Source of the DNA: Chlamydiota bacterium
GTDB taxonomy: Bacteria > Chlamydiota > Chlamydiia > Chlamydiales > RGXB01
Direction: 5' to 3'
Assembly: GCA_947494155.1 (NCBI GenBank)
Contig: CANLTW010000004.1
Coordinates: 1 to 64,000, forward strand
Length of the DNA: 64,000 bases
The position numbers were made by a program, and so were the translations under genes. Under the pieces are notes generated by a model, which worked only from the letters and a program-made list of their open reading frames with translations, ran no database searches and was not told where the DNA came from. Below, piece by piece: positions 790 through 64,000 of this stretch (the first letter of the stretch is position 1; each line of letters begins with the position of its first letter).

Positions 790-805
790 CCGGATAAAAA
801 AGCTT

Positions 806-5309: not shown

Positions 5310-5439
5310 AACCCCTTCCCTTAGCATATTTCCTATTAATCAGAAAACCTCTTCTTTTGGGGGTAAAAGCCTCACTCGAAGGATAGATATGGGACCCGTC
5401 TCTTGATTTTTCATCGATTTATCTCTAAACTAAAGGGGT

Positions 5440-6567: not shown

Positions 6568-6600
6568 TAGGTATAACAAGTTTACAAAAGGAGTCAAGAA

Positions 6601-7065
6601 TTGAAAGCCAAAGAACCTGTCCACTTTAGCGGAGTGGATCAAAATGGGAAACCAATAAACAGTGAAGATTTCAAAGGGCGTTGGATCGCTTTGTATTTTT
6701 ATCCCAAAGATGATACTCCGGGTTGCACAAAACAGGCCTGTAATTTAAGAGAAAATTTTGATGAATTGCAAAAGCATGGAATCGAAATTTTAGGGGTGAG
6801 TCCGGATGATGTGGAAAGTCACAAAAAGTTCGAGCAAAAATACGACCTCCCTTTTCGCTTGATAGCCGATCCTGAGCGGAAAATTTCGAAAATGTTTGGC
6901 GTCTATAAATGGCATTTTGGATTCAATTTTTTTCCCTATAAATGGGTAAAAAGAGTCACCGTATTGATTGATCCAAACGGTATTGAGGTCGGGAGAATCG
7001 AGAAAGTCGAAGTAGGCAACCACTCCAAACAAATTTTGGAATTTCTCAAATCCTATATCTCGTAA
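6601..7065 (+). CDS. bcp: Peroxiredoxin, BCP/PrxQ family
   Basis: LYFYPKDDTPGCTKQAC motif. TTG start with RBS aaaggag. Confidence 0.92.
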   Translation: MKAKEPVHFSGVDQNGKPINSEDFKGRWIALYFYPKDDTPGCTKQACNLRENFDELQKHGIEILGVSPDDVESHKKFEQKYDLPFRLIADPERKISKMFGVYKWHFGFNFFPYKWVKRVTVLIDPNGIEVGRIEKVEVGNHSKQILEFLKSYIS

Positions 7066-7079
7066 AATCCATGCTTAGC

Positions 7080-7109
7080 TTGCTTTTTCAAGGTTATTGG
7101 AAGTATACT
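7080..7109 (+). promoter_or_regulatory. Putative sigma66 promoter for the MYG1-HIT-HEAT operon
   Basis: TTGCTT-N18-TATACT, followed by a ~110 nt leader containing hairpin agatcctaaaa/ttttaggatct (7180..7204). Confidence 0.5.
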
Positions 7110-7223
7110 TGAGCCTTAATTGACACATACATTTTCAAAAATGTTTGTTTGGGAAATCAGAAGAAATAATTCTACAACCAGATCCTAAAATTTTTTTAGG
7201 ATCTTCATTTTGAGGATAGTTGC

Positions 7224-8120
7224 ATGTCCCTTGAGAAAAAAACGGGTGCAGTGGTGCATGACGGTCCGTTCCATGCGGACGAGATCATCGCGTGTGTACA
7301 GCTACTTTATGCCAATTTGATACAAAAAAATGAGATTCATCGCTCAAGAGATCCCCTTGTTATTTCCAAATTTCAATTTGTTGTTGACGTCGGCGCTATT
7401 TACGACGAGAAACATTTTTTATTCGACCATCACCAAAGCTCGTATCAGGGGGAGCTGAGCTCTGCAGGGATGGTGGCGAAATTTCTTTTCCATCAGGGTT
7501 TTTACGATACGCACCTGTATCATCATCTCAAAAAAGAGTTGATTGATCACGTAGATGCCTTCGATAATGGTCGCGTCAGCCGGGAAATTTTGAACACACC
7601 CACTTTTTCTCATGCGATTGAAAATTTTGTTCCTATTAGAGAGGGTGCGGACAAAGAGGAGATGAACAGAGCCTTTTTCCAGGCTTTGGATTTTGCCTAC
7701 GGCCATTTTGATCGCCTTGTGGAGCGCTACAGGTATAGGCAGCGTTGCAAAGAAGTTGTAAAAAAAGTTATGGATTCTTCCGACGAGATCCTTGTTTTTA
7801 ACGAGATGGTTCCCTGGCTTGAGAACTTTTTTGAACTCGGGGGAGAGAAGCACAAGGCAAAATATATTGTGATGCCTGTGCCTAATGGTTGGAAACTAAG
7901 GGTAATTCCAAAAACCTATGCTGAGAGAATGGGCTCAAGGCTTGATCTGCCAAGCTTCTGGGGCGGGTTAAATGAGGGGGAGTTTGAGTCAGTCTGTGGT
8001 ATTAAAGGGGGGAAGTTTTGCCATAAGGGGCTTTTTATTGCAATTTTTGCTTCAAAAGAGGGGGCGATTGAGGGGGCAAAGAAAAGTCTTAAACACCATA
8101 AACAAGAAACTCGAGACTAA
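7224..8120 (+). CDS. MYG1-family (UPF0160) metal-dependent hydrolase/exonuclease
   Basis: HDGPFHADE, VDVG, FDHHQ, LSSAG, DAFDNG and FCHKGLF motifs. Confidence 0.9.
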   Translation: MSLEKKTGAVVHDGPFHADEIIACVQLLYANLIQKNEIHRSRDPLVISKFQFVVDVGAIYDEKHFLFDHHQSSYQGELSSAGMVAKFLFHQGFYDTHLYHHLKKELIDHVDAFDNGRVSREILNTPTFSHAIENFVPIREGADKEEMNRAFFQALDFAYGHFDRLVERYRYRQRCKEVVKKVMDSSDEILVFNEMVPWLENFFELGGEKHKAKYIVMPVPNGWKLRVIPKTYAERMGSRLDLPSFWGGLNEGEFESVCGIKGGKFCHKGLFIAIFASKEGAIEGAKKSLKHHKQETRD

Positions 8121-8123
8121 AAG

Positions 8124-8459
8124 ATGAAAACACTTTTTTCCAAAATTATCGACAAAGAGCTTTCGGCCACTATAATTTACGAAGATGAGATGGTGATTGT
8201 GATAAAAGATATCCATCCTAAGGCTCCGATTCACTGGTTAATTATACCAAAAATACCCATCCCAACATTTCAGGATTTACAAAAAGAGCATTTCGGGTAT
8301 TTGTTAGCTATGACCGAAACGATTCAAAAACTAGCAAAAGAGCACTCCATTGAAAAGGGGTACAGGCTAGTGGTGAATAATGGCCCTGATGCGGGGCAAT
8401 CGGTGTATCATTTACATATACATATGTTGGCTGAACGTGCACATAATCACGATTTTTAG
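8124..8459 (+). CDS. HIT-family nucleotide hydrolase
   Basis: TLFSKII, DIHPKAPIHWLIIPK, NNGPDAGQSVYHLHIH histidine triad. Confidence 0.93.
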   Translation: MKTLFSKIIDKELSATIIYEDEMVIVIKDIHPKAPIHWLIIPKIPIPTFQDLQKEHFGYLLAMTETIQKLAKEHSIEKGYRLVVNNGPDAGQSVYHLHIHMLAERAHNHDF

Positions 8460-10137
8460 TAGTTTGATCCTAGCCTTCCCTTTGATGGCCGGTTGGAATG
8501 AGATCCATTCTTCCATCCTCATTCAAGATAACGAGGGGGCTTTAAACCATTCAAAAAGCTATTTTCTCGAGGATCCGGATAAAACCGAGCGCAAATTTCT
8601 TTATGCTCAAACTCTAGCTCATCTACTAAAAACTCAAGAGGCGATCCATCTAGTAAAATCCGAAGATCTTTTGCCGGTGAATGCGTTTGAACTTATCGAG
8701 TCTCTAGCCTGGTCTGTTTTGCGCAAACATGCCCAAGGGGGGGAGGCCAGCGAAGCTATGTCAGTTTTAGGAGCTGCCATCACGCGGGATGTGCGTGGAA
8801 TGAAGATTCTTATGGAAAAGGCCCGCTCGCCTAATGCTCGTGTTAGGGGATTTACCATGAAGCTAGCCGGTTTTTATCCAGATCCTCCCTTAAAAAAACT
8901 TGTCGCAAAGATTATAGGAACCGAAACTAACTACCATGTTCGTTTGGAGGCGATGCGAGCTGCAGGCCTTCAATCGAATGCGGATGCGACCGAAGCTCTG
9001 AAAAAAATGATCGAACACCCCCTCTCCACCTCTGAAGAGAGGTTGACCGCAATACATAGCCTGGCCCTTATTCTCGAAGGGATTGATCCCATACAACTTG
9101 ATTTTTTGATTCGTAATGAGAGGTCTCAGTATAGACAGCTTGCTTTAGAGTCGATTATACGCGAAGGGAAAAAAGAGCATTTAGACCTTGTAATCAACCA
9201 CCTAAAAGACCCCTCTCTTGATGTCCGCTCCAAAGCCTTTGAAGCACTTGCTCTTTTATCCGATTCTGAGGAGCTGATTATTCGAGCGCAGCCGATGATT
9301 CAGAGCAGTTGCGAAACGGTATCGTTACCGCTTAAAATGATGGGGCATTGGACTTTATCACTGAGTAAAAATTCTCAATCGATCGATTTTCTCATCGATT
9401 GTTTAGACCACGAGTCTGCTGGGATTCGAGTACTTGCTGCCTCTTATATTGCAAAATCTAAACCGGCACTCTCAGTTTTAAAAGACAAAGAGAAACGGAT
9501 CATGGATCCTTTTGCTAAAATCAATCTTGCTATGGGATACCTCCGGCATAAAATGGCTTTGGAATTTGTAAAAGACTCTTTCAAGGAGTTTTTACATAAC
9601 GAGATGGGATTGGTGATGCTTGCACAAGAGGAATCGATGTTTCCTACAATTCTCCCTTCGCAAGTTCCGCATCAACCCATGTTACCGAATTACCCGCTGA
9701 TCGTCGATCAGCTGACACGCCTCTCTTTGATTGGGTCGTACGCGCTTGTGGATCTCGAGGGGGCCAAGAATGCACTTGAGCGCCTTTTTGAGAAAAAGCT
9801 TGTGCCGGTGAGTAGAATGGCTCTCATCTTTTTGTTTAAAGAATCTGATACCGATGTGGTAGAGGTAGCAAGGGAGCTGAGTAAGACAGGTGATAGAAAG
9901 AACCGGTTGCAGACCCTCCTTGTTCTCGCCTTTTTTGGAAAAGAGACAGCGATTGTCGATGAGCTGATCGATCTATATCCTAACGTAAGCTTTGAGGAGA
10001 AGATCCAGATCGTTGAGTCTTTAGGGTACTTGGGTGGGGATAAAACGGTAAGATTCCTTTTGAAAAAATTGGAGGAACCCTCAAGGCTAATACAAATTGC
10101 TGCTGCCTCTTCACTAATCCAGTCCCTTTACCACTAA
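8437..10137 (+). CDS. HEAT-repeat protein with probable signal peptide, CT384-like
   Basis: Repeated VR..A..AL HEAT units. GTG at 8437 gives the signal-like N-terminus MHIITIFSSLILAFPLMA and reduces the overlap with hit. Confidence 0.75.
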   Translation: MHIITIFSSLILAFPLMAGWNEIHSSILIQDNEGALNHSKSYFLEDPDKTERKFLYAQTLAHLLKTQEAIHLVKSEDLLPVNAFELIESLAWSVLRKHAQGGEASEAMSVLGAAITRDVRGMKILMEKARSPNARVRGFTMKLAGFYPDPPLKKLVAKIIGTETNYHVRLEAMRAAGLQSNADATEALKKMIEHPLSTSEERLTAIHSLALILEGIDPIQLDFLIRNERSQYRQLALESIIREGKKEHLDLVINHLKDPSLDVRSKAFEALALLSDSEELIIRAQPMIQSSCETVSLPLKMMGHWTLSLSKNSQSIDFLIDCLDHESAGIRVLAASYIAKSKPALSVLKDKEKRIMDPFAKINLAMGYLRHKMALEFVKDSFKEFLHNEMGLVMLAQEESMFPTILPSQVPHQPMLPNYPLIVDQLTRLSLIGSYALVDLEGAKNALERLFEKKLVPVSRMALIFLFKESDTDVVEVARELSKTGDRKNRLQTLLVLAFFGKETAIVDELIDLYPNVSFEEKIQIVESLGYLGGDKTVRFLLKKLEEPSRLIQIAAASSLIQSLYH

Positions 10138-10156
10138 TCTAGAGAGAAAAAACCTA

Positions 10157-11230
10157 GTGTCTGTTTGTTACCTGATTATTGACCACAAGGGGATCCACCC
10201 CGGAGTAGAGCAGTTATTTAGTCATTTAAAGACTAAGTCTAGGTGGTGCTACCTCGCAATTTTGCCCGATAAAAAGTGCACGGCATTTGTTTTTTCAATT
10301 GAGAAAGAGGCGTACGAAAACAGCTCTTTTGAGGCGGTGCACTCTTTCTATTCCAAAAAAGCGCTCCTCGAGGCATTAGCCCTTTTTTTGAAGGGTAAAA
10401 AGGTCTTTGTGGATGAGGATATTGTCCCTTTTAAAAAAATTGAAGAGCTCAAAGCCCTTTCTATTGATGTCCATAGCGCCGAGGTTTACAGGCAACAAAT
10501 CTACTCCTTGAGCCCCTCGATGGTGACATCGCATCAACAGGCCAATAGCAATATAGAACAGATCATGAAAAATTTCGCAGTTTGGTTTGCGAAAGAGCCT
10601 CTTTTAACAGAAAAAAATATTGTCGACTGGCTTTTAAAAGAGATTGAAAGGCGGGGGATGGAGACTATCTCCCATCCGATTGTGGCTTACAAGGAAAATA
10701 GCGCTTTGCCCCACTACCATTTAGAGGGGGAGGGGGCTTCTATACTTGGGGAGGGACCTCTATTAATAGACCTATGGGCGAGACTCAAAGAACCAAATGC
10801 CATTTATGCGGACAGAACTTTTTTATTCATGGTCAATCGCGAACCTAACCTAGAGGAGAAAGAGGCCTTTTCAGCAGTTTTGACGGCTCAAAAAAAAGCG
10901 TTTCAAGCTATCGGAGCTCAAAGTAAGGGCTCTTATGTGGATGCAGTTGCAAGGGCTGTTTTAGAGGAAAAAGGGTATAAAGAGAATATTCTTCACCGCC
11001 TTGGACACTCGATCGATAGGAGCTTGCACGGGCTATCTATGCATTTTGATAGCGTCGAGGAGCCAGACGAAAGAGTGCCGGTCAAGAACATGGTAGCCAG
11101 TATTGAACCGGCTGTATATATTCCAAAAAAATTCGGGGTTAGGCTCGAGTCTAACATTTTTATTGATGAAAACCTGCAACCCCAATGGACAAATCCTCTC
11201 CAAGAGGGCTGGATTCTTTTAACACACTAA
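10157..11230 (+). CDS. Xaa-Pro aminopeptidase, M24 family
   Basis: SALPHY, LIDLWA, ADRT, HRLGH, SIEPAVY and GVRLE metal-ligand motifs. Confidence 0.88.
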   Translation: MSVCYLIIDHKGIHPGVEQLFSHLKTKSRWCYLAILPDKKCTAFVFSIEKEAYENSSFEAVHSFYSKKALLEALALFLKGKKVFVDEDIVPFKKIEELKALSIDVHSAEVYRQQIYSLSPSMVTSHQQANSNIEQIMKNFAVWFAKEPLLTEKNIVDWLLKEIERRGMETISHPIVAYKENSALPHYHLEGEGASILGEGPLLIDLWARLKEPNAIYADRTFLFMVNREPNLEEKEAFSAVLTAQKKAFQAIGAQSKGSYVDAVARAVLEEKGYKENILHRLGHSIDRSLHGLSMHFDSVEEPDERVPVKNMVASIEPAVYIPKKFGVRLESNIFIDENLQPQWTNPLQEGWILLTH

Positions 11231-20880: not shown

Positions 20881-21570
20881 GTGGCAAAATTAAGCAAAAG
20901 AATGCGAGAGATCAAAAAATTTCTCGAAAATCGCTCCTTGACTGTTCAAGAGGCGGTTGACCATATTAAAAAAGAACCGAAAGTAAAGTTCGACGCTAGC
21001 GTGGATCTCAATATTTCCTTGAATGTTGATACCAAAAAAGCTGACCAGCAAGTTCGAACAAGCGTTGTTCTTCCACATGGTACCGGTAAAGCGGTGCGCG
21101 TTGTTGTTGTGACAAAAGACTTGGAGAAAGCGGCTCAAGCTAAGGCTAACGGTGCTATCGAAGCGGGCTCTCTAGAGCTTCTCGATCGCATGCAAGGCGG
21201 ATGGGTAGATTACGATCTTGTTATCGCATCTCCCGATGTTATGCGCGATTTTGCTAAGGTTGCAAAGGTTCTCGGTCCACGAGGGCTCATGCCAAACCCA
21301 AAATCGGGAACTGTAACCCAAGACGTGGTTGCAGCGACGGTTGAGGCTTGCAAAGGTAAAGTCGAGTTGAAGCCCGACAAAATGGGACAAGTGCATTTAA
21401 GAATCGGACGCTTATCGTTTGAGAAGGACAAGCTTGTAGAGAACGCAGAGGCGATTATCGCTGAGCTGATCAAAGCCAAGCCAAGAGCTCTCAAAGGTGC
21501 ATTTATTAAAAGTGTATACATGGCCTCTACCATGGGTGGAAGTCATCAATTAGCAGTTTCGGCGGAGTAA
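20881..21570 (+). CDS. rplA: 50S ribosomal protein L1
   Basis: VLPHGTGK, LGPRGLMPNPKSGTVT, STMG. GTG start at 20881 with RBS ggagga. Confidence 0.98.
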   Translation: MAKLSKRMREIKKFLENRSLTVQEAVDHIKKEPKVKFDASVDLNISLNVDTKKADQQVRTSVVLPHGTGKAVRVVVVTKDLEKAAQAKANGAIEAGSLELLDRMQGGWVDYDLVIASPDVMRDFAKVAKVLGPRGLMPNPKSGTVTQDVVAATVEACKGKVELKPDKMGQVHLRIGRLSFEKDKLVENAEAIIAELIKAKPRALKGAFIKSVYMASTMGGSHQLAVSAE

Positions 21571-21575
21571 GAACC

Positions 21576-22094
21576 ATGAGGAAAGAGAAAGAGTATCTTC
21601 TAGAAGAGATCGCAGGTTCGATTCCTCAAGGATCTAATCTTGTTCTTGTCAATTACGGCAAAATGGAGCCCAATAAGACTCACGATTTCCGTCGTAGGAT
21701 TTCTAAAGTCGGTGGACGCTACCTAGTCGTAAAAAAACGTATTTTCCGCAAAGCTGCGGAAACAAAAGGGATGAAAATAGACATTTCCCACCTTAAAGGA
21801 AATGTCGGTTTTGTTGTTGCTAATGATAATTTTCTTGAGGCGACCAAAGAACTTTATAGTTTCAGAACTGATAATAAGGATCTGATCGAAGTTCTTGGTG
21901 GCCATTTTGAAGGGAGCTTCTGCTCACCAGCTCAAGTGGAATTAATATCTAAGCTACCAAGCCTACCAGAAATGCGCGCACAATTCCTCGGAACGCTCGA
22001 GGCGCCGCTTTCACACACATTAGGTGCTATTGAGGCTGTATTGACCTCAGTCATCTACTGCTTGGACAACAAAGCTAAAGATCAACAATCATGA
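21576..22094 (+). CDS. rplJ: 50S ribosomal protein L10
   Basis: Position, plus VVKKRIF and SKLPSLPEMRAQFLG motifs. Confidence 0.95.
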   Translation: MRKEKEYLLEEIAGSIPQGSNLVLVNYGKMEPNKTHDFRRRISKVGGRYLVVKKRIFRKAAETKGMKIDISHLKGNVGFVVANDNFLEATKELYSFRTDNKDLIEVLGGHFEGSFCSPAQVELISKLPSLPEMRAQFLGTLEAPLSHTLGAIEAVLTSVIYCLDNKAKDQQS

Positions 22095-22610: not shown

Positions 22611-25600
22611 ATGGCTATTAGACCACCTCAGAGGGTCAGTTTACAGAAACGGCAAGAGATTATCGATTTGCCGAATTTGATTGAAGTACAAATCAAATCC
22701 TACCAACAGTTCCTACAAAACGATCGTCTTGCAGACGAGAGAGATAGTATAGGGCTCGAAGAGGTTTTCAGAGAGGTATTTCCGATCAAATCGTACGACG
22801 AAAAGATCATCCTCGAATACCTATCGTACAACTTAGGGGTACCTAAATACACACCGGAAGAGTGTATTAAAAGAGGTATTACATACAATTCCGCATTAAA
22901 AGCTAAATTCAGACTTACCGATGAGACCGGTATCAAGGAGGAGGAGGTCTATTTAGGGACTTTGCCTCTCATGACGCAAAGGGGAACCTTTGTAGTCAAT
23001 GGTGCCGAGCGCGTCATCGTCTCCCAATTGCATCGTTCGCCGGGCATTTGCTTTGAGCAGGACAAGCATCCAAAAGGGAACATTCTTTACTCTTTCCGTA
23101 TTATTCCTTATAGAGGAAGCTGGTTAGAGGCTTCTTTTGACATCAACGACCACGTTTATATCTACGCTGATAAAAAGAAAAGACGTCGCAAAATTTTGGC
23201 GACTTCATTCATCCGTACACTCGGTTTCTCTACAAACGCAGACATTATTGAAGAGTTCTTCGAGACAAGAAAAGTCAAAATCCGCTCAGAAAAAGAGTTT
23301 GCCAAAATTGTAGGAAAAATCTTGGCAGAGGACGTAGTGGACGAAGCTACGAATACTGTTTTCGGAAAAGCATCTGAAAAGCTTACAACCGCAATGTTGA
23401 AGCGTATCTTTGATGCTAATATCACTACTCTCAAAATTGCAGAGGATGCAGACGAAACGTCACCTATTATCAAAATGTTAGCAAAAGATCCTACGGACTC
23501 TTACGAATCCGCTCTAAAGGATTTTTATCGCAAGTTGAGACCAGGCGAACCGGCTACCCTCTCCAATGCTCGCTCAGTGATGATGCGTCTTTTCTTCGAT
23601 CCGAAAAGATACAATCTCGGTCGTGTTGGTCGCTACAAGATGAACAAAAAGCTCTCAGTTGAGACTAACGACGAAGCCCTTAATGTTGTCACTTTGAAAA
23701 AAGAGGACATCATTTTGGCGTTGAAGTATCTTATCCGCTTAAAGAACGGAGATCCACAAGCGCAAATCGACGATATCGATCACCTTGCTAATCGCCGCGT
23801 GCGCTCAGTAGGGGAGTTGGTGCAGAACCAGTGCCGTATCGGTTTTGTTCGTATGGAAAAGATCATTCGTGAGAGAATGAACCTTTTTGATTTCTCATCA
23901 GACACCCTAACTCCAGGCAAAGCGATTTCTGCCAGAGGTCTCCAAGGGGCAATCAAGGATTTCTTTGGTCGCTCGCAACTTTCCCAGTTCATGGATCAGA
24001 CCAACCCGATCGCTGAATTGACACATAAACGTCGTCTTTCCAGTTTAGGTCCTGGTGGATTGAACAGAGATCGTGCTGGATTCGAGGTTCGCGACGTCCA
24101 CCCGAGCCATTATGGTCGTGTTTGTCCGATTGAGACTCCAGAGGGACCGAACATCGGTTTGATCACTTCGTTGTCTTCGTTTGCGAAAATCAACGAATTT
24201 GGTTTTGTTGAGACACCCTATCGGATAGTGCGAGAGGGGATTGTTACCGATGAGATCGAGTACATGACTGCAGACATGGAAGAAAAATGTGTGATTGCTC
24301 AGGCTTCAGCCCATCTCGATGAACACAACATGTTTACTGAGGATTTTTGCTGGGCGCGCTTTAAAGGGGAGTCTTTGAAGATCGAATCCTCTAAAGTAAC
24401 GCACATGGACGTTTCACCACGTCAGCTTGTTTCAGTTGTTACAGGTTTAATCCCTTTCCTAGAGCATGACGACGCTAACCGTGCCTTGATGGGATCTAAC
24501 ATGCAACGCCAAGCCGTACCCCTATTGATTACTGATGCTCCAGTTGTTGGAACAGGGATCGAGAAACGCGCTGCAACAGATTCCTGCGCTGTGATTATTG
24601 CGCAAGAAGCTGGAGAGGTGGAGTACGTAGACGGTTACAAAATTGTGATCGCTCCGGAGAGAAGCCCGTTAAGCAAGAAGGTCTACCCACTTGTCAAATT
24701 CATGCGTTCCAACTCAGGCACTTGTATTAACCAAACTCCTCTCGTTTCGGTAGGAGACAAGGTAGTAGCAGGTGACGTTTTAGCAGATGGTCCGGCAACC
24801 GACAAAGGAGAAGTAGCTCTTGGTAAAAACGTGCTAGTTGCCTTCATGCCTTGGTGCGGATACAACTACGAAGATGCGATCATTATCTCAGAGGAGTTGA
24901 TTCGTAAGGATTACTACACCTCTATTTACCTCGAAGAGTTCGAGCTTACAGCCCGTGATACGAAGCTAGGTAAAGAAGAGATCACTCGCGATATTCCGAA
25001 TGTCTCGGAAGAGGCTTTGGCGAATCTTGGCGATGACGGTATTATCCGTATTGGAGCCGAGGTGAAACCCGGGGATATCCTTGTAGGAAAAATCACTCCA
25101 AAATCGGAAACTGAACTTTCCCCAGAAGAGCGTCTTTTAAGAGCGATTTTCGGCGAAAAGGCGGCGGATGTGAAGGATGCATCACTGACAGTTCCTGTCG
25201 GGACTGAGGGTGTTGTAATGGATGTGCGCGTTTTTTCACGTGTAGATCGTCTATCCAAAACGGACGATGAGCGTGTTGAAGAGCGTAGTCAAATTCAAGA
25301 TATACACAAGTCCTACAAAGAAAAAGAGATCGAAATCACAGTCGAAATGCACGAAAAGCTGGGAGCGCTTCTTATCGATGAGAAAGCACCTGAGCCCATC
25401 ATGCACAAAAAGACAGGCGAAGTGATCATCCGATCTGGCCAGGTATTTACTCAAGATCTTCTAGAGTCTATCGAGTCAGTCCCACTAGCTGATCTTATCG
25501 TCCCCTATTCCGATCTCTATGAGACTATGAAATCGATTCTTAGAGAATTCCATGGAAAAATGGAAGAACTTGATTCGAAGTACAAATCGGAAGTGGAGCA

Positions 25601-26387
25601 TCTCAAAAAAGGGGATACCGAGCTTGAGGCAGGGGTAATCCGTCAGGTTAAAGTCTATATTGCGACAAAGCGCAAGCTGCAAGTCGGAGATAAGATGGCT
25701 GGACGTCACGGTAACAAAGGGGTGGTCTCCAAGATCGTTCCAGAGTGTGATATGCCATACCTTGAGGATGGAACTCCAATCCAAATTATTTTGAACCCAC
25801 TCGGGGTACCATCCCGTATGAACTTGGGGCAGATGTTGGAGACTCACTTGGGATTCGTAGCCAAGAAGAAGGGGATTTACGTAAAGAGCCCTGTCTTCGA
25901 AGGTTTCCCGGAAAAAGAGATTTGGAAAATGTTCGAGGATCTCGACATGGAACCCGATGGTAAGTCCTATCTTTATGATGGACGCACAGGGGAGCGCTTC
26001 GACAACAAGGCTGTAGTCGGATACATTTATATGTTGAAACTCTCACACCTTGTTGCGGATAAGATCCACGCTCGTGCGATCGGACCCTATTCTCTCGTTA
26101 CGCAACAGCCTCTTGGAGGTAAAGCGCAACGGGGAGGTCAGCGTTTCGGTGAGATGGAGGTATGGGCGCTTGAAGCATACGGCGCTGCCAACCTTCTCCA
26201 AGAGATGCTCACGGTGAAGTCGGATGACGTTGACGGAAGAACACGCATCTACGCTTCGATCGTTAAAGGAGATAATATTCTTCAGGCCGGTACACCTGAA
26301 TCTTTCAACGTTCTTGTAAAAGAGATGCAAGGATTGGGATTGGATATACGCGGATTTGTTGAAACGCCAGTAGAGGCTCTAGCTTAA
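22611..26387 (+). CDS. rpoB: RNA polymerase beta subunit
   Basis: [33 protein letters not shown]. Chlamydia-type N-terminus. Confidence 0.99.
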
Positions 26388-26396: not shown

Positions 26397-29300
26397 ATGC
26401 ATCAAAAAGAAGAACAACTACACGAACAGCACTTTGATCACCTCTCCATTCGTATCGCCTCTGATGAGGTGATACGTGGTAGCTGGTCACGTGGTGAGAT
26501 TAAGAAATCTGAAACGATCAACTACCGTACAAGCAAGCCTGAGAAAGGGGGTCTTTTCTGTGAAAAGATCTTCGGACCTACGAGGGATTGGGAGTGTGCC
26601 TGCGGTAAGTACAAAAAAATCAAGCATAAAGGGATTGTTTGCGATCGTTGCGGCGTTGAGGTTACCCTATCTAAGGTACGTCGTGAGCGGATGGCACATA
26701 TTGACCTTGCTGTGCCTGTTGTGCACATCTGGTTTTTTAAGAGCCAACCATCACGCATCGGCAATCTCCTTGGGATGTCCTCCGGGGATCTTGAGCGTAT
26801 CATCTATTATGAGGAGTATGTTGTTGTAGATCCAGGTCGCACAACTCTTGAGAAAAAGCAACTTCTCACCGACATTGAGTATAGAGAAGCGCAAGAAAAG
26901 TGGGGAGCTGAGTCTTTTAAAGCGATGATGGGTGGCGATGCTATCCGTCAACTCTTGAACACAGAGGATTTGCAAGCGACTGTTGTGGAGCTCAAAGAGA
27001 AGCTTAAAAAGACCAAATCAACGCAAGCGCGTATGAAGATTGCGAAGCGACTCAAAATTGTTGAGGGATTCACCAACTCTGACAATAAATCGGAGTGGAT
27101 GGTCATGGCGGCAGTTCCGGTGATTCCACCAGATCTACGCCCTTTAGTTCCGCTTGATGGGGGCAGATTCGCCACTTCAGACCTCAACGACCTTTACCGT
27201 CGCGTCATCAACAGAAACAACCGTTTGAAGTCCATCTTAAAACTCAAGACTCCTGACGTGATTATCCGTAACGAAAAGCGTATGTTGCAAGAGGCAGTAG
27301 ACGCCCTTTTCGATAACGGTCGTCATGGCCACCCCGTTATGGGAGCCGGGAATCGCCCATTGAAATCCCTAAGCGAAATGCTTAAAGGGAAACAGGGGCG
27401 TTTCCGTCAAAACCTTTTGGGTAAACGTGTCGACTACTCAGGCCGTTCGGTAATTGTGGTGGGTCCTGAGCTTAAGCTCAACCAGTGCGGTTTGCCAAAA
27501 CAGATGGCTTTGGAACTCTTTGAGCCTTTTATCGTGAAAAAACTCAAAGATGACGGACATGTCTACACTATCCGATCTGCTAAAAAAATGATCCATAGAG
27601 AAGAGCCTGTAGTATGGGACGCTTTGGAAGAGGTGATCAAAGGTCACCCTGTTCTTCTGAACCGTGCTCCTACATTGCACCGTCTCGGGGTTCAGGCATT
27701 TGAGCCGGTTTTGATCGAAGGTAAGGCCTTGCGCATCCATCCTCTCGTTTGTACCGCTTTCAACGCCGACTTCGACGGAGACCAGATGGCTGTCCACGTA
27801 CCGTTGTCTATCGAAGCTCAGATTGAAGCGAAAGTTTTGATGATGGCTCCTGACAACATCTTCTTGCCCTCAAGTGGTAAGCCGGTCGCGATCCCTTCAC
27901 AGGACATGATCCTAGGTCTTTACTATATGATGCACGATCCTGTGATCAAGCGTGAGGAAATGGGGGGGAAAACAAAGGTATTTGCCAACACTGACGAGGT
28001 GCTGTTAGCCCTCAACAGCGCAGGCAGCTACTCGATGTTTGAAGAGCGCCAGGAGGGTCAGCGTATTGATGATCTTGGACGAGGAATTCATATCCACGAG
28101 TCTATCAAGGTAAAACTTGAGGATGGTTTTGTTGAAACGACACCCGGAAGAGTGCTTTTCAATACTATTGTACCTAAAGAGCTCGGTTTCCAAAACTACT
28201 CTTTACGTAAGAAAAAGCTCGGCGAACTGGTAAATCAGGTCTACAAAACTGTGGGTCTTGAAAGGACTGTCCGTTTTCTAGATGATTTGAAAAACCTCGG
28301 GTTTAGCCAGGCAACTAAATCTTCTATCTCTATGGGTGTTGTAGATGTGCACATTCCGCAGATCAAAGAGAAGCTTCTTAAAGAGGCAGAGAAGAAGGTT
28401 GCTGTAGTGATCAAGCAGTACGAGGATGGAGTCATCACAGAAGGGGAGCGAAAGTCCAAAATCATCAGTATCTGGACGGACGTAACCGAGGAGATTTCCG
28501 AAGAGCTCTTCAAGCGTATCACTACGCCAAAAGGCTCTAAGTTGAATCCTCTTTATATGATGATGGATTCCGGAGCTCGTGGTAACAAGTCTCAGGTGCG
28601 ACAGCTTGGTTCTCTTAGAGGTTTGATGGCGAAACCATCAGGCGAGATCATCGAATCTCCGATCACCTCTAACTTCCGTGAAGGGTTGAGCGTTTTGGAA
28701 TACTTCATTTCTGCTCACGGTGCCCGCAAAGGTCTTGCCGATACGGCATTGAAAACTGCCGACTCCGGTTACCTAACACGCCGTCTTGTAGACGTAGCGC
28801 AGGATGTCCTTGTAAATGAGGAGGACTGTGGCACGTTGAACGGGATTGAGGTTGCTGCGATTAAGCAGGGGACAGAGGATCTGTTGCCACTCAGAGACCG
28901 CCTGTATGGTCGCTGCGTGACAGACGATGTCTTCATGCCTGGAGACAGCAAGGTGATTCTCGCAAAAGCCGGGGACATCCTCTCTATCCATCAAGCAGAA
29001 GCGATCGAGAATGCCGGTATTGAGAGCCTTAAGGTGCGCTCAACGCTCACTTGTGAATCCAAGCGTGGTATCTGTGCGAAGTGCTATGGTATCAATCTTG
29101 CCAACGGGCGTAAGGTAAACCATGGTGAGGCTGTAGGTATTATCGCCGCGCAATCGATCGGTGAACCCGGTACTCAGTTGACGATGCGTACGTTCCACTT
29201 AGGAGGTATTGCGTCCGCTAGCCAGAATCCCGAGTTGATTACCGATAAAGAGGGTATCTTGGTCTACCACGATATCCGATCAGTACGTGACGAAGAGGAT

Positions 29301-58017: not shown

Positions 58018-60099
58018 ATGCATACAGTATCAAATTTTTTGGCACCAGTCGAGGATCCAACCCACCACCCCTCTTACATACACTATAGAAACCGCGTTCT
58101 CGATGGGGAAACGGATCAGTTAAGAAAACTTTTTGAAATTATTGCTTACACCGGAACGAGTATCCCGTCTGTACTAGAGAAAGATCGTGTTCTTTACGAA
58201 GAGATCCAAAATAGGATGGGATCAAGATGGGTCTGTTTGGCTACGGAATCCTCTATCGCCTCCCAGATGACAAAGGATTTTTCTGTCCCCGTCTGGAAAA
58301 ATAGGAAGTTTGAATTGCTTAAAATGGATTTGGAGGACGATCAATGGGAATTCTTTAGCTCACTGGAGGCCTATTTGGAGGACGAAGGGATCGAGGGGCT
58401 AAAAAAAGTTTTTCAAGATCCGCAACTCAAAAGTTTTCTTGCAAATCATCCTCAGGAGTGGATTCTTTCTGTTTATAAGATGTTTCCTGAGGCCAAAGAG
58501 ACGATTGAAGAAAACTTTCACATCTCTTTAAACGTTGAGGCTAGAAAAAGCCATGAATGGAAACAGGCATTAGAGGCATTATATGACAATCTTCTACAAA
58601 ATCCAGAGAATACGGCCTCATTACTTAGGAGTTTTTTGAGGCAAACAGGCGAGGGGGGATTAGAGAATCTTTTTTTAGAAAAGCCCATACAAGATCTGCT
58701 TTTCCAAAATGAGGAGGTTTTTTGGATTCCAGAGGTTCTTAAAGAGTTTCCTCAGGCATGGGAGAAAATTGAGGCTCAAATCTCCAAACTCTGGCTGACC
58801 AACCCAGATCTGTTACAGTTTCTTGAAAGAGATAGCGACTGGTTCAAAGCCCTCAAAAAGGGGGCGTTTACCACTACACCGCTGCTTTTTCTTTCCGATT
58901 ACGCAAAAAAGGGAAAAATATCCTATCAAAAACTTGATCCGGGAGTATTGCATAAGATTTTTTTGCAAGAGGCTTATCATCCTATTTTGCATAGTGACAA
59001 AAACTATCCATGGATCCCTTTTTACTTATCCCATCTCCCGGAAAATGTGCAGCTGGTAGAGGCTTTTATCGCAAAAAAATGGAAAGACGATCCTGCATTC
59101 TTCGAGGTAGTGCGAGAATCCAACCTGTGGTTAGAGGCTTTAGTGAAGACGCTCCGTCAGTCTCGAGAACCCTCTGCGTTTTTGTTTTTTGTCGATTTAA
59201 TTAGACTATCTTGTGATTTGAAAGGGTTGAGTCCGGAAAAAACCAGACATTTTCTTTTGTACCTTCCCGATTGGATGTTAGCTAAATTTGGGAAAGCGCC
59301 CTTTTATAAAGATAAAAACGACTCATTTCGCGAGGTTATCAAAGACCTTTGTGAAAAGACAACGCAAAGGACTTTAGAGGAAAAAGCGTTGTCCATCGAG
59401 TGGTGCAGGCTGGTCAAAAATCTCCATCCGATAGCCCTCATTGAGCTTTCTAAAATGGTGCCCGCGCACCAGCTTGCCTCAAGATGGATCCCTTCGATGG
59501 AGCTTCATCAGCTATTATTACTCATCCCTTTACTGGAGCTGGCCCCTTTCAAAACTGTTTTTAATGAGCTTTTTTTAGAGGAGCATCCAAGAGCCTTGAT
59601 GTTTGCGACCGAGATGCAAAAGGAGTTTTACGCTAATGTATTCGCCTACGCTTTTGATCAGGACTTTCAGAACACTTTTCCACTACAAGAGCAAACGATA
59701 GAGGCGCTTAACGGCTTTCTTTTGAGAAAAAGGACCGCTCTTAAGTCTATTCAAGCCCTTTATAGGAAAAAACCTCAAAATATTGCCCAGTGCCTCTCTT
59801 TGCTTGAGGGGAAACTGGAGCAGATTGAGAGGGGAGTATCACCCCTTTTCTTGCAGGAGATCCGTTTAGAGGAATTGGTGCAAGAGTGGAAAAATACTTC
59901 TCTATCCGAATCCCAAAAAGTCTCGTTCGAGGTCCCTTTGAAACCGGTAGATAGCACACGCCCCTTGGAGTTAGAAAATGTCTCTTCAACGGAAAGCGAG
60001 CATCCTGAGGGGCATTTTTTCTCCTCCAAGGAGACTGTGATTCTCCCGAAAGTCTCCATCCCGCGACTCCCTTTGGAGCGGTTAGAACGGGACTCTTAG
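58018..60099 (+). CDS. Large hypothetical protein with three internal helical repeats
   Basis: 693 aa. The pattern L..lF...l..lL...WI..v...fP...iE...W..AL recurs three times. Confidence 0.6.
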   Translation: MHTVSNFLAPVEDPTHHPSYIHYRNRVLDGETDQLRKLFEIIAYTGTSIPSVLEKDRVLYEEIQNRMGSRWVCLATESSIASQMTKDFSVPVWKNRKFELLKMDLEDDQWEFFSSLEAYLEDEGIEGLKKVFQDPQLKSFLANHPQEWILSVYKMFPEAKETIEENFHISLNVEARKSHEWKQALEALYDNLLQNPENTASLLRSFLRQTGEGGLENLFLEKPIQDLLFQNEEVFWIPEVLKEFPQAWEKIEAQISKLWLTNPDLLQFLERDSDWFKALKKGAFTTTPLLFLSDYAKKGKISYQKLDPGVLHKIFLQEAYHPILHSDKNYPWIPFYLSHLPENVQLVEAFIAKKWKDDPAFFEVVRESNLWLEALVKTLRQSREPSAFLFFVDLIRLSCDLKGLSPEKTRHFLLYLPDWMLAKFGKAPFYKDKNDSFREVIKDLCEKTTQRTLEEKALSIEWCRLVKNLHPIALIELSKMVPAHQLASRWIPSMELHQLLLLIPLLELAPFKTVFNELFLEEHPRALMFATEMQKEFYANVFAYAFDQDFQNTFPLQEQTIEALNGFLLRKRTALKSIQALYRKKPQNIAQCLSLLEGKLEQIERGVSPLFLQEIRLEELVQEWKNTSLSESQKVSFEVPLKPVDSTRPLELENVSSTESEHPEGHFFSSKETVILPKVSIPRLPLERLERDS

Positions 60100-60158: not shown

Positions 60159-62384
60159 TTACAGGTTTTTTAGGAGAGCAAGCTCTAAAGGGAGAAATTG
60201 CTGTAGGGGGATCGTGCGCCCTTTTTTAGAGTGTTTATCGATCAGCTCTCTTAAAGTGGGAAAATGGGAAAATGGGGCAGTTGATGCCCCAAATGCATGC
60301 TGAGGTGTTGTGGTCAATGAGGGTTTAGCAAGCCAATCGTAAAACTGAATAACAAGGGGGTGGTTAGGGTTATGAAGGTTTTCAATCAACTCCAGAGCCT
60401 CTTTTTGCCCCAGCGTCTCCAAAGTTTTTGTTTTCATCAAATAAAAGGCGATAAGGCTCTCCCCGTCTTTCAAGTCGATGCAGGGGGGTACTTCAAGAGT
60501 TTGAAGAAGCTCATGAATTGCCGGGGTGTTTTTAGGGAGCAGATGATACTTCAATACAATCAGCGCAAAAAGATAAGGACCTAGGCGCCCCTCTTCTTTG
60601 GATTGTTCTAGGCGAAAAAGGATCTCCTCCTCAATAAGGATCAGTTGCGCATCGTTTCTAAATAAATTTAAAGCAATCTCGTAACATTTAGCCTCCTCAC
60701 CCACCTCATGTAATTTGCGGTAGCTTAACCCCTTTCCAAGCCATTCCAGGATCCCTTTTTGCGTTTTGTGCAGTTTTTCGAAAGCCTCAAAAGCCTCATC
60801 GGTTCGATTGAGCTCTAAAAGGGTGAGACCGCTTCTGAACGTAGCAATAAGACCCTCGGACCTCCGTTCAAAAGAGTGGCTGATTTTTTTGTACTCTTCC
60901 AAGGCTTTTTCATATAGCCCGTTAGCAAAAAAAGTGTCTGGGATGGTCAAGCATCCGATTCTTGCATTGTAAGATCCACAAGAGACGGAAAAGCTTTTCA
61001 TTTTAAACTGCAGATCTTTGTAGACTAGACCCACATGTGCTCCCGTTACAGGCAAAAAGATGGGGACAACAAAAAGGGTTTTACCCCCGATTTTCAGTTG
61101 GATCGATTCGTAAAGTTTTTCTATTTCTATCTCTAGACTTACCCCCTCCTGGACTTGGGGAGCGCAGAGGGTTTTTAGAACGATTCCGGCACGCAACAGC
61201 CGCACCTGGTTTGGGGCAATCCAGACAGTCAAGCCGGAGTCTAGACCTTTTTGCTCCATTCTATGGGCAACACCAAGTAAAAATCCTACCCCCTCGTTCC
61301 CTTTTTCTAAAGTAATATGCGCTTCAAGCTTCACGTTTCCCGGAAAAAGCGTTGAGGAAAGCATGTAGATAGCCCAATCTTTGGTCTGTTTTAAAACCAC
61401 GGTTTCTTGCAATTCCCAGTCCGATGGGTTTTTGGGATCCAATCGGGCAGCAAAAACCCAATCGGCTTTCCCTTCGAAATACTGCTCTAAATCAGAAATC
61501 ATCTCCTTGAGGTTTTGGTAGCGGTGCTCTTTCTTGAAAGAGAGGCAACGCATAGCGATTTTTGCAAGAAGGGGGGGGATTTCACGCATCGGTGCGACAT
61601 CTATGGGATCTAAAATCTTTTCCTCTTGGGCCTGTTGTTTAAACATCTTCACCGACTGCCTTTTAAAAGGGTGTTTCAAAGTGAGGATTTGGTATAGTAT
61701 GACACCCAAGGAGTAGATATCGCTTTGCACGCTGTCGAGTTTCTCCAAGATCCTCTCGGGTGCCATATAGGTGATGGTTCCCACAATTTTACCCACGCGT
61801 GTTAAGTCGGGATGGGATTTTAAGACCGGCATGTCATCGAAAGATTCCTCATTCATATCGGCATACTCGGCAAGTCCGAAATCGTAGATAAGCACCTCGT
61901 TGAATGGGCCGATCAGAATATTTTCGGGTTTCAGATCCCGATGCAAAACCCCCTTTGAGTGTGCATACTGAACGGCATGGCAGATTGTCAGAAAATCCCT
62001 TACTAGATGGATTGTCGAGGCTTTAGACTGTCGGTAGCTAGCCAAAAGAGTTTTAAGAGTTTTGCCCTGAATGAAGGGCATTATATAGAAAAGATCTTGA
62101 AAATTTTCCTCGATGGAATAGACACCTAAAATGGCAGGGTGAGTAAGCTGAGCCGCTATTTTTGCCTCTTTCAGGAAGCGTTGGCGAATCAGAGGGATCC
62201 CATGCATTTCGGGGCGGATCCTTTTGAGGGCAACATCCCTTTCGGTTTTAGGGTCATAACAAAGATACACCTCCCCCATGCCACCCTTGCCGATAAGCTC
62301 TTTGACCTCATAGTGGCCAATCGTCTTAGGGGGTTTTGTCAAAGGGTGCAGGGATTCCTTAGAGCTTTCGACTTCTCTGTCCAT
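60159..62384 (-). CDS. pknD: Hanks-type Ser/Thr protein kinase PknD with TPR-like C-terminal region
   Basis: IGKGGMGEVY, VALKRI, HRDLKPEN, DFG, GTITYMAPE. Near valS, as recalled for Chlamydia. Confidence 0.85.
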   Translation of the reverse strand: MDREVESSKESLHPLTKPPKTIGHYEVKELIGKGGMGEVYLCYDPKTERDVALKRIRPEMHGIPLIRQRFLKEAKIAAQLTHPAILGVYSIEENFQDLFYIMPFIQGKTLKTLLASYRQSKASTIHLVRDFLTICHAVQYAHSKGVLHRDLKPENILIGPFNEVLIYDFGLAEYADMNEESFDDMPVLKSHPDLTRVGKIVGTITYMAPERILEKLDSVQSDIYSLGVILYQILTLKHPFKRQSVKMFKQQAQEEKILDPIDVAPMREIPPLLAKIAMRCLSFKKEHRYQNLKEMISDLEQYFEGKADWVFAARLDPKNPSDWELQETVVLKQTKDWAIYMLSSTLFPGNVKLEAHITLEKGNEGVGFLLGVAHRMEQKGLDSGLTVWIAPNQVRLLRAGIVLKTLCAPQVQEGVSLEIEIEKLYESIQLKIGGKTLFVVPIFLPVTGAHVGLVYKDLQFKMKSFSVSCGSYNARIGCLTIPDTFFANGLYEKALEEYKKISHSFERRSEGLIATFRSGLTLLELNRTDEAFEAFEKLHKTQKGILEWLGKGLSYRKLHEVGEEAKCYEIALNLFRNDAQLILIEEEILFRLEQSKEEGRLGPYLFALIVLKYHLLPKNTPAIHELLQTLEVPPCIDLKDGESLIAFYLMKTKTLETLGQKEALELIENLHNPNHPLVIQFYDWLAKPSLTTTPQHAFGASTAPFSHFPTLRELIDKHSKKGRTIPLQQFLPLELALLKNL

Positions 62385-62912
62385 AAAAAAACTATCGCAC
62401 GAACAGGATCAACTTGGCAAGAAACACCTGAGTTTTCTTTCTCCTATTGGATAGCAATCTTTGAGTGTGATACCGACAACCCCCTTTTTTTTGAAAAAAG
62501 AGTTTAAAAATGGGGTGATGACCCTATCACGCGCGCATTGAGAGATTTAAAAAAAGGGGGAGGGGATTCAGATGTGACCGTAACAAAAACAACAAAAGGC
62601 GATGTTGTGATTGATATTGAATAATAAAAGTTTGTCGGCCAAACCTTTTTTAACACTCCTCTTTAACACCTTTCGAAGATCGCCAGCTCAGGGGGCAGTC
62701 GCACATACTAAATGCTTAAACAGCGGTTTTTGAAACTAACAAATTGACAAAGAGCGGATTATAAAAAATGTAAAATACCCCTTTTAAATAAATATAAAAT
62801 ATTTTATTTATTAAATTATAGTAAGTGCGTTGAAGCCGCAGGGGTTTCCATCGCGCGCGAAGTAAAAAAAAACTATTTTTTAACGAGTGTTAAATTTTAA
62901 AAAGGGATTTAT

Positions 62913-63137
62913 ATGCCAAGAAAACAAGCAAAAGCTCCTAATGTTAACCCCAAACAGCCGCAAGAACCAACTAAGCGTGGTGGTGTTGGAGATATTGTTG
63001 AAAACCAATATAATTTTTTTATTGGGGGGGGAAGCACTGGTAGTGTAAACCAACCAGGTAATTTAATAGGTGACGATGGGACAGACCCCAATGAGCGAAG
63101 TGGAACTGCTCCAGGTGCACCTAAGGGGTCGTTCTAA
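62913..63137 (+). CDS. Small Gly/Pro/Asn-rich peptide, 74 aa, with internal KRGG
   Basis: RBS aaaggg, followed by a strong hairpin. Occupies the same position in its cassette as 63655..63816. Confidence 0.65.
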   Translation: MPRKQAKAPNVNPKQPQEPTKRGGVGDIVENQYNFFIGGGSTGSVNQPGNLIGDDGTDPNERSGTAPGAPKGSF

Positions 63138-63161
63138 ACGATTTATAACGTTTATTGCACC

Positions 63162-63202
63162 AAAAAAATCTCTAGAGGCTCTGCTTCTAGAGATTTTTTT
63201 TT
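63162..63202. terminator. Bidirectional terminator hairpin, cassette 1
   Basis: aaaaaaatctctaga/tctagagattttttt 15 bp perfect arms. A second hairpin tctcccgaaaa/ttttcgggaga lies at 63206..63238. Confidence 0.75.
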
Positions 63203-63654
63203 CCCTCTCCCGAAAATGGAAAAAACCTTTTCGGGAGAATCTTCTAGATTGGAGGTTCTTTAAAAAAGCGCTCAGCGAGTGTTTAATTAGCTTACAATCC
63301 CATTTTTTTAACCTGTTGCAGGAAATAGCCAAAAATAGCGATTTGGAAATGGGAATTTTTAGTGGCGCTCGCACTTAAAGACATCTCCATTTTTGCCCAA
63401 GGTTCAGCTCTAACTTGGCTTAATAGGAGTTCGCCTCTTAGGGGAGTTTAGCTAGGAAGAATCCGGAGTAGTGGTTTTGAACGCAAGGAATTCAACTAAA
63501 GCATATTATAAAAAAAATTAAAAATTTATAGAAAATAAATGTAAAATATTTTATGTAATAAATAACAGGGAATGTGATGGGTGCGTTGACGATCCTATCG
63601 CAATAAAACATTCAATAAATTGTTAAATTTTATTAAAAGGAATTCGTGGATTTT

Positions 63655-63816
63655 ATGGGAAAAAAACAACAAAAAGGAGCTCTATCAGCTCAAAGACTAC
63701 GTGGTGGCAAGAAAGAAGTGACACAAGATCTCGCGGGGGAGGAAACAACAAAAAAACCCGGGAAAGCTCCAGTTTCAGATCAACCTTCTTGTGGCCCAAG
63801 CACAGAGAGTTACTAA
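63655..63816 (+). CDS. Small peptide, 53 aa, with internal RLRGG (not in the ORF track)
   Basis: MGKKQQKGALSAQRLRGGKKEVTQDLAGEETTKKPGKAPVSDQPSCGPSTESY, translated by hand. Same cassette position as 62913..63137. Confidence 0.65.
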   Translation: MGKKQQKGALSAQRLRGGKKEVTQDLAGEETTKKPGKAPVSDQPSCGPSTESY

Positions 63817-63840
63817 TATACCATTGTGAATTTATTGCAC

Positions 63841-63882
63841 CAAAAAAAATCTCTGGAGCACTGCTTCTAGAGATTTTTTTTG
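63841..63882. terminator. Bidirectional terminator hairpin, cassette 2
   Basis: caaaaaaaatctct...agagattttttttg inverted repeat. Confidence 0.7.
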
Positions 63883-64000
63883 CCCAATTACCAAGAAGGG
63901 AAATAATCTTTTTAGAGGAGCATCCTAAATAGGAAGTTTAAAAAAGCTCTAAACCGGTGTTAATTTTAGCTCTAAGCCCCTTTTTTTCAAAAAGTTGTCG

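Follow-up and report, generated by a model that had tools for sequence, protein, structure and literature searches.

At the end of a 64,000-nucleotide (nt) stretch of DNA from a Chlamydiota bacterium (GCA_947494155.1, contig CANLTW010000004.1, positions 1 to 64,000), two small genes lie in frames that are copies of each other. This whole stretch, the first 64 kb of an 82-kb contig, is called the window below. Each of two homologous units of ~0.7 kb consists of a small open reading frame (ORF) and a strong terminator. ORF1 (62913-63137) encodes 74 amino acids (aa) and ORF2 (63655-63816) encodes 53 aa, or 56 aa if the GTG at 63646 is used as its start. The two products have a basic start and the tripeptide R-G-G in common, and when compared as proteins they give no mutual match at E<=10. 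They may be precursors of peptides that are cut after Gly-Gly and exported, a reading that is favored here tentatively.

Two duplicated units between a kinase gene and trpS

A first-pass annotation of the window had described two homologous units with conserved non-coding frames, and this description is upheld by BLAST within the genome, by exact repeats, and by folding. The homology spans the entire length of the units in a full alignment. By BLAST, 63831-64088 matches 63151-63397 at 72% over 265 nt (E 1.8e-25), a further unit-to-unit stretch of 83 nt matches at 83% (E 7.7e-15), and the AT-rich blocks upstream of the ORFs (62758-62816 and 63505-63563) match at 76%. A 12-nt exact block, TGTTAAATTTTA, stands shortly 5' of each start codon, and an 18-nt exact repeat, TTTATTGCACCAAAAAAA, is found 3' of each ORF, at 63151 and 63831. 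Also 3' of each ORF is a hairpin made of an A-run, a stem, and a T-run, which folds at -22.1 kcal/mol in unit 1 and -21.8 kcal/mol in unit 2 (z -5.3 and -5.0; 0/200 shuffles as good). Both terminators were missed by a simple terminator scan and detected by folding, and from a reading of the stems we put this down to their loops of ~9 nt. Across the assembly (1.41 Mb in 24 contigs), a motif search and BLAST found this type of cassette at these two places only. The features of the locus are given below; "sister strain" refers to a metagenome locus, L061, from a near-identical strain (trpS 1015/1022 nt identical).

60159-62384, minus strand: Ser/Thr protein kinase gene with a TPR tail (Pfam Pkinase, E 4.4e-49), the conserved left neighbor, outside the cassettes
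62430-63980, plus strand: lineage-specific block of ~1.56 kb that holds the cassettes; matches to same-genus flanks end at ~62423-62429 and restart at ~63981-63989
62540-62627, plus strand: remnant of a cassette 0, with core end and stop readable and no in-frame ATG; 63% identical to the sister strain
62740-62830, plus strand: conserved AT-rich block upstream of ORF1, presumably a promoter or operator region, containing a 14-nt palindrome (62794-62807)
62888-62912, plus strand: conserved pre-start block of unit 1, which includes a purine-rich ribosome-binding stretch and has an exact 12-nt repeat at 63621-63632
62913-62984, plus strand: ORF1 leader, 24 codons, ending K-R-G-G
62985-63137, plus strand: ORF1 hypervariable core, 50 aa and stop, rich in Gly, Pro, and acidic residues
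63151-63200, plus strand: TTTATTGCACC motif and terminator hairpin of unit 1
63259-63397, plus strand: degenerate second copy of the region upstream of trpS and of its first codons; aligns to 63937-64088, which enters the real trpS
63505-63565, plus strand: conserved AT-rich upstream block of unit 2, from the repeat alignment with unit 1
63655-63708, plus strand: ORF2 leader, 18 codons, ending L-R-G-G; alternative GTG at 63646
63709-63816, plus strand: ORF2 hypervariable core, 35 aa and stop
63831-63882, plus strand: conserved motif and terminator hairpin of unit 2
63937-64000, plus strand: trpS upstream region (trpS ATG at contig base 64035; Pfam tRNA-synt_1b, E 1.5e-54)

The origin of the second unit can be read from the debris between the two. 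Since 63259-63397 is a broken copy of the trpS upstream region and first codons, the units arose by tandem duplication, and the duplicated segment ran from the cassette into the 5' end of trpS. The idea that the array might continue past position 64,000 has to be given up, as trpS, which encodes tryptophanyl-tRNA synthetase, begins 35 nt beyond the window. When five genomes of the same genus (G001, G002, G003, G005, and G006) were searched with 2.6 kb of the locus, the gap between the kinase gene and trpS was at most ~135 nt, with no cassette block, in four of them (G001, G002, G003, and G005). The flanks adjoin without the block in these four, and the ~1.56 kb (~62430-63980) is therefore lineage specific. 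In G006, the closest genome (85-89% identical), a contig ends at the locus, and there is a partial cassette before trpS.

Searches with the ORFs in 40 relatives returned chance-level matches only, and a search of 5.8 billion proteins returned the window's own proteins, one allele of each, and nothing else. There was no usable match for ORF1 in the ESM Atlas and no Pfam or NCBIfam family for ORF1 or ORF2, and a permissive Rfam search of 62300-64200 gave chance-level matches only, all far below gathering scores.

The neighbors of the locus are the kinase gene, trpS, a GH18 gene, and SpoIID-like and RuvB genes. Large ORFs without a Pfam family lie on either side of the region, at window positions 58018-60099 (plus strand, 693 aa) and at C4:66627-67937 of the contig (minus strand, 436 aa). 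In the environmental DNA run X2, several contigs match just ~36 nt of the AT-rich elements (62785-62823 and 63504-63546) and then diverge from the window, and the AT-rich upstream element may recur in other strains or loci. Assemblies also tend to break at these elements, as they do at the contig ends of G006 and L061. Within the genome, the AT-rich palindrome upstream of both units is not common to other peptide loci. A Chi-like recombination role for the R-G-G-encoding CGTGGTGG was considered and rejected, with 28 copies on both strands and an observed/expected ratio of 1.27.

Natural alleles and environmental libraries

The sister strain has three cassettes before trpS. Its cassette 0 is an intact 47-aa ORF with an MKK-type, Lys-rich start and the residues KGG, while only the tail of the counterpart survives in the window (~62540-62627), with no start codon. 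Its ORF1 allele is 76 aa long and its ORF2 allele, identical to P0004, is 56 aa long; both ORFs are open, with the same start and a similar end. The identity between the window and the sister strain changes sharply along the locus:

Upstream of ORF1, including the AT-rich block of unit 1: 97.5%
Leader 1: 94.4%
Core 1: 59.6%, with indels, frame kept
Terminator 1: 91.2%
Inter-cassette DNA: 97.6%
Leader 2: 100% (over 54 nt)
Core 2: 58.3%, with three 3-nt indels
Terminator 2: 69.6%
Downstream: 96.0%
trpS: 99.3%

The conserved leader and variable core that the first-pass annotation had seen between the two units thus reappear between strains, with leaders 94-100% and cores 58-60% identical and the frames kept. 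The unit 2 hairpin of the sister strain is altered in both stem and loop and still folds (z -6.7). Other alleles behave in the same way. In the environmental runs X15, X19, and X2, ORF1 has a net indel of -3 nt in each, with 1-2 residue changes in the leader and >20 substitutions in the core. A further full-length ORF1 allele, P0002, has its first 44 residues identical and the remainder different, and P0004 is a further full-length allele of ORF2. Both paralogues and all the alleles observed (P0002, P0004, and L061) keep the R-G-G in one position, and variability starts within a few codons after it.

The divergence of the cores is ~twenty-fold over background, is confined to the ORF bodies, and keeps the frames, and it is therefore not neutral decay. 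The pattern suggests that alleles have been replaced by recombination, that a translated product is under diversifying selection, or both. A diversity-generating retroelement was ruled out as the source, because the changes are not adenine specific and include indels.

Near-identical DNA is present in 14 DNA runs labelled freshwater or lake (shares 0.37-0.87), and six RNA runs contain small shares of near-identical sequence. Cassette 1 contigs were found in 3/3 RNA runs examined, which come from three studies: 289 nt in X15 (62866-63153), 203 nt in X17 (62866-63053), and 411 nt in X19 (62844-63254). These contigs run from ~50-70 nt 5' of the ATG to or beyond the terminator. There were no contigs on ORF2, the kinase gene, or trpS in the three runs, and missing cover of this kind carries no weight.

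Export machines and lysine-rich Gly-Gly peptides in the same genome

The first-pass annotation had noted no peptidase, transporter, or modifying enzyme at the locus and had suggested a search for C39 peptidase-ABC (ATP-binding cassette) transporters. Two are in the genome, with HlyD partners and, in one case, a LanM-N-terminal-like protein, all of them away from the locus. Each belongs to a three-gene export cassette made of a HlyD-type adaptor (TIGR03794), a peptidase-containing ABC transporter or PCAT (TIGR03796, with a Peptidase_C39 domain), and a second ABC protein (TIGR03797):

C5:58123-64406, plus strand: NHLP-type export cassette, second ABC protein ~990 aa
C8:45483-51757, minus strand: NHLP-type export cassette, second ABC protein ~990 aa

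The Peptidase_C39 domains of the two PCATs match at E 5.7e-37 and 2.9e-32, and the closest solved structure to the C39 domain is the double-glycine protease domain 6mpz (E 3.4e-41). The Gln, Cys, His, and Asp are invariant in 22/22 PCAT N-termini from the order, and the transporter is found in 24/150 genomes sampled from it. A contig scan with the C39 domain gave 594 relatives across many phyla and was not informative for the window locus; the net charge of the C39 domains was uninformative as well. The cargo usually associated with such machines is missing. The best whole-genome match to the NHLP leader family has an E of 0.11, which is not counted as present, the Nif11 leader family has no match in the whole genome, and neither ORF1 nor ORF2 is matched by the NCBIfam leader models TIGR03793 and TIGR03798.

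The C8 operon also encodes a 534-aa protein (C8:51818-53425, minus strand; locus L025, 10819-12426) whose match to LanM is limited to the N-terminal dehydratase part (DUF4135, E 1.8e-51; positions 10-271 of 932 in TIGR03897; LicM2 and CylM in PDB), with no cyclase domain and no full LanM match. A scan of genome contigs with this protein returned no relative. Upstream of it are two unknown proteins of 186 and 155 aa, which look paralogous by eye.

Small ORFs with Lys-rich leaders form a larger set. In a scan of all ATG ORFs, an MKK start was found in 17 small ORFs that are intact and an MQK start in one more, along with at least three truncated copies. The leaders of the 17 are Lys-rich over 19-31 residues up to and including Gly-Gly and are followed by unrelated cores. 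The intact members are:

C1:17668-17766, minus strand
C7:17955-18071, minus strand
C8:54825-54941, minus strand
C10:9777-9914 and 10055-10204, plus strand
C13:221-313, minus strand; 647-730, plus strand; 28057-28176 and 28189-28323, minus strand
C14:4957-5067 and 6845-7072, plus strand
C17:22759-22878, 22908-23048, 23094-23252, and 24401-24547, plus strand; 25915-26046, minus strand
C18:20812-20919 and 21523-21669, minus strand

A strict family filter, picked after the matches had been seen, retains 12 of them in the real genome and none when the genome is reversed or locally shuffled (five shuffles, 0 in each), while a looser filter is barely enriched (16/8016 ORFs vs 11/8606). Counting back from the predicted cleavage site, position -4 is hydrophobic in 9/17 members compared to 10% elsewhere in the leaders (p 1.3e-5, also a post hoc statistic), and positions -7 and -12 are hydrophobic in 2/17 members each. 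Exactly two Cys are present in 6/18 cores. Several of the genes are duplicated in tandem or in inverted orientation, and the DNA upstream of the copies is near-identical. The 17 Lys-rich peptides matched no Pfam or NCBIfam family, in a search where nine minus-strand queries were offset by one codon. The truncated copies lie on the minus strand at C10:31421-31483, C18:20600-20653, and C13:33180-33233. The DNA of the first is near-identical to that of the member at C13:28189 but has a stop just before Gly-Gly, and the second has an intact counterpart in G006.

Some members of this set are close to export genes. For example, ~360 nt upstream of the C8 export operon there is a 38-aa ORF that begins with a Lys-rich stretch, continues with five Gly in a row and a short tail, and has a hairpin to itself, and two members are directly downstream of an operon for a HlyD-family protein, an MFS protein, and an outer-membrane factor. 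In all, three of the ~18 Lys-rich ORFs adjoin export genes. On contig C14 (40% G+C), the region 337-10200 has two ankyrin-repeat proteins and three patatin-like phospholipases with two Lys-rich peptide genes interspersed; the genome also has a match to the Hc1 family, type III chaperone families, and eukaryote-like repeat proteins, and in this analysis the chlamydial label was based on these and on genome size.

Related genomes carry such peptides too. G001 has four with one leader (MKKREVK...NKRGG or a close variant) and entirely different cores, at C38:228-601 (L058), on C42 (L059), and on C23 (L051, 5071-5154). Two of the four are in tandem ~245 nt apart, and one is 170 nt upstream of a HlyD-PCAT pair. 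G002 has orthologues of two Lys-rich members, with both Cys retained in one. Two PCATs and at least four Lys-rich peptides each are found in the genome studied here, in G001, and in G006. G003 has one PCAT and G005 has none, and no Lys-rich peptides were seen in either, as judged by eye from pattern matches. The co-occurrence of PCATs and peptides within the genus is only a hint, coming as it does from kin genomes. A profile built from 20 peptides and run over 41 genomes (this one and 40 relatives) found no use, being too insensitive: it recovered 3/19 of its own members.

What the window peptides may be

The reading favored here, though held too tentatively to be called probable, is that the ORFs are translated as precursors for leader-directed export, with a cut after Gly-Gly releasing unmodified, microcin- or pheromone-like cores under diversifying selection. 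On this reading the genes are independently terminated genes for small proteins, duplicated in tandem, two intact and one decayed, and were gained by one lineage of a freshwater chlamydia-like genus at the site between the kinase gene and trpS. Each encodes a short basic leader with Arg-Gly-Gly at its end, followed by a disordered core in which Gly, Pro, and acidic residues abound and which is replaced or diversified between otherwise near-identical strains. One of the two NHLP-type type I machines (HlyD, C39-peptidase ABC, second ABC, and a TolC-like channel) would recognize the leader, the precursor would be cut after Gly-Gly, and the core would be exported to act as a microcin- or pheromone-like peptide under diversifying or frequency-dependent selection. 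The window peptides would then stand, in function, beside the ~18 Lys-rich-leader peptides of the genome. In favor of this are the kept frames, the RNA-library contigs, the presence of exporters in a genome with no conventional cargo for them, the Lys-rich set with its bias at -4, its two-Cys cores, and its members beside export genes, the Leu at -4 in ORF2, the MKK-type start and KGG of cassette 0 in the sister strain, and the counts of PCATs and peptides within the genus. The sequence analysis establishes the structure of the genes, their duplication and restriction to one lineage, the leader-core contrast with its kept frames, the occurrence in RNA libraries, and an intact exporter in the genome; translation, leader recognition, the cleavage site, export, and the biological role are inferred.

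Gly-Gly falls at residues 23-24 of ORF1 and 17-18 of ORF2, within the ~15-30 aa expected of such leaders, and is kept in P0002, P0004, and L061, and a C39 PCAT with its catalytic residues is in the same genome. In the canonical double-glycine leader, hydrophobic residues at -4, -7, and -12 form a recognition helix, according to PMC6363468. Measured against the pattern given there, ORF2 fits at -4 alone and ORF1 nowhere. The canonical determinants are lacking, and the window peptides therefore fall outside the classical double-glycine leader family. Of the precursor layout proposed in the first-pass annotation, the leader ending in Gly-Gly and the variable core have stood. The peptides plausibly work like double-glycine precursors only if the C39 domains read a different, basic leader. 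A complex prediction for ORF2 and the C39 domain, the latter entered as an alignment, scored 0.00 and weighs neither way.

Several findings weigh against precursors of this kind. The residues at -4, -7, and -12 are Lys, Glu, and Pro in ORF1 and Leu, Ala, and Lys in ORF2, and a recognition helix is unlikely in the Pro-rich leader of ORF1. The profile made from the 17 Lys-rich leaders gives ORF2 7.2 bits (rank 25 of 13,662 ORFs) and ORF1 0.2 bits, both exceeded by the best reversed-genome control at 8.7 bits; the cassettes of the sister strain score 0-7 bits, its cassette 0 ~0-3 bits. The profile thus does not separate the window peptides from noise and does not place them in the Lys-rich set. 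There is no exporter, immunity gene, or receptor near the locus, and the PCATs are on contigs C5 and C8 of a fragmented assembly. G002 has at least two Lys-rich peptides with no PCAT found (89% complete, 190 contigs), and two Lys-rich loci adjoin genes that resemble type III secretion chaperones (CesT and TPR_3), an arrangement compatible with a different export route. Conservation of the leaders does not exceed that of the neighboring non-coding DNA, and the contrast between strains therefore rests on the abnormally divergent cores. Finally, the RNA-library contigs give no strand, ends, level, or translation, and DNA carry-over is possible.

In a different explanation, rather unlikely in our view, the ORFs are real and expressed, but their products are small disordered proteins that evolve fast, bypass the C39 exporters, and have Gly-Gly only incidentally. 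Such proteins could be type III-secreted effectors directed at the host, or cytoplasmic or nucleoid-associated proteins. The missing leader determinants (with Lys at -4 of ORF1, against the pattern in PMC6363468), the lack of exporter linkage, the failure of the Lys-rich profile to recognize ORF1 and ORF2, and the chaperone-like neighbors of the two Lys-rich loci all suit it, and hypervariable cores also fit host-directed effectors. What it leaves unexplained is why R-G-G keeps its place in both paralogues and in all alleles with variability beginning a few codons later, and why two complete exporters with intact catalytic residues have no recognizable conventional cargo; effectors of 53-76 aa would also be unusually small.

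It is improbable that the peptides are precursors of RiPPs, peptides made by ribosomes and modified after translation. The cores would in that case be dehydrated or altered in some other way, for instance by the LanM-N-terminal-like protein next to the C8 exporter, and then be cleaved off and exported. The 534-aa DUF4135 protein is indeed encoded in the C8 operon, a Lys-rich Gly-Gly peptide gene lies upstream, and Ser and Thr are present in the cores. However, that enzyme has no cyclase domain and no full LanM match and is on another contig, and ORF1 has no Cys and ORF2 one; the full LanM and the cores rich in Cys and Ser/Thr that mark class II lanthipeptide systems are absent. No radical SAM, YcaO, or ATP-grasp enzyme was linked to the locus. 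Gly/Pro-rich cores of 35-52 aa are more like unmodified, microcin-type peptides. Least likely is that the units are non-coding RNAs or decaying duplication debris with untranslated ORFs, for even though there is no protein family or homologue outside the lineage, a dead trpS fragment follows unit 1 (so that part of the block is debris), and cassette 0 has decayed in this genome, both frames stay open in several independent assemblies although the cores differ by ~40% and have in-frame indels, Rfam gives no match, and the divergence falls in the ORF bodies and not in the untranslated parts, the opposite of what would be expected of a structure-constrained RNA.

If the peptides are indeed exporter cargo, leader-directed export would have consequences beyond this locus. 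To our knowledge, chlamydiae are not known for ribosomal secreted peptides. A full-text search of the literature returned nothing about peptides with Gly-Gly leaders in chlamydiae, nor about leaders of this type that are rich in Lys. The one related statement found, a passage of PMC9666466, mentions RiPP-like clusters for some families of chlamydiae. One could consider a wider picture, held more loosely than the reading of the window peptides, in which environmental chlamydiae run a secreted-peptide system with many precursors: dozens of small genes with short basic Gly-Gly leaders, the window cassettes among them, NHLP-type machines that read an atypical Lys/Arg-rich leader, and cores that turn over as alleles replace one another and that serve as weapons or signals, either among strains infecting one host or against the host. 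If true, no bacteriocin- or pheromone-type peptide system would have been described before it in obligate intracellular bacteria. As exporter cargo, ~20 genes and two export machines would be maintained in the 1.4-Mb genome of a probable intracellular bacterium, the hypervariability at strain level would point to competition or signalling inside host cells, and the atypical leader would broaden the known recognition rules of C39 peptidases.

Known systems resemble the window peptides in different respects. Class II microcins and related Gly-Gly peptides are exported in gram-negative bacteria by a C39-peptidase ABC transporter with a HlyD-type adaptor and TolC. As in those systems, the window genes encode a small precursor in which a leader of 18-24 aa ends in Gly-Gly and the core is anionic and rich in Gly; each gene stands alone and has its own terminator, and the genome has a complete peptidase-ABC/adaptor system that retains Cys-His-Asp. 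By the pattern in PMC6363468, the window leaders differ in being basic and in lacking the hydrophobic residues at -7 and -12 and, in ORF1, also at -4. The window genes, moreover, are away from the exporter, have no immunity gene, and belong to a chlamydia-like intracellular host.

The NHLP/Nif11 systems, which include the prochlorosins, are similar in their three-gene exporters and in their many scattered precursor-like genes with conserved leaders and hypervariable cores. In the prochlorosins, one processing and export machine serves many scattered precursors. NHLP/Nif11 leaders are much longer than 18-30 aa, whereas the leaders here are 18-30 aa and Lys-rich, with no NHLP/Nif11 leader and no full LanM. 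The Gly-Gly pheromones of streptococci, competence and bacteriocin-inducing peptides with strain-specific pherotypes, share a kept Gly-Gly leader and a mature part that differs as discrete alleles between close strains; cleavage by a PCAT is predicted here. The window cores, however, are longer and disordered, and no co-varying receptor kinase is at the locus, and in four relatives the neighboring kinase gene is next to trpS with no cassettes between the two.

A further comparison is within the genome itself. The window leaders have far fewer Lys than the MKK...GG set and are not recognized by its profile, and there is no DNA similarity between the window cassettes and the other loci. The two groups nevertheless share an M-x-[KR]-K-Q-x-K start, Gly-Gly at residues 17-24, a variable core, R-G-G in several members, and tandem duplicates with conserved non-coding frames, and in the sister strain an MKK-type cassette stands at the window locus.

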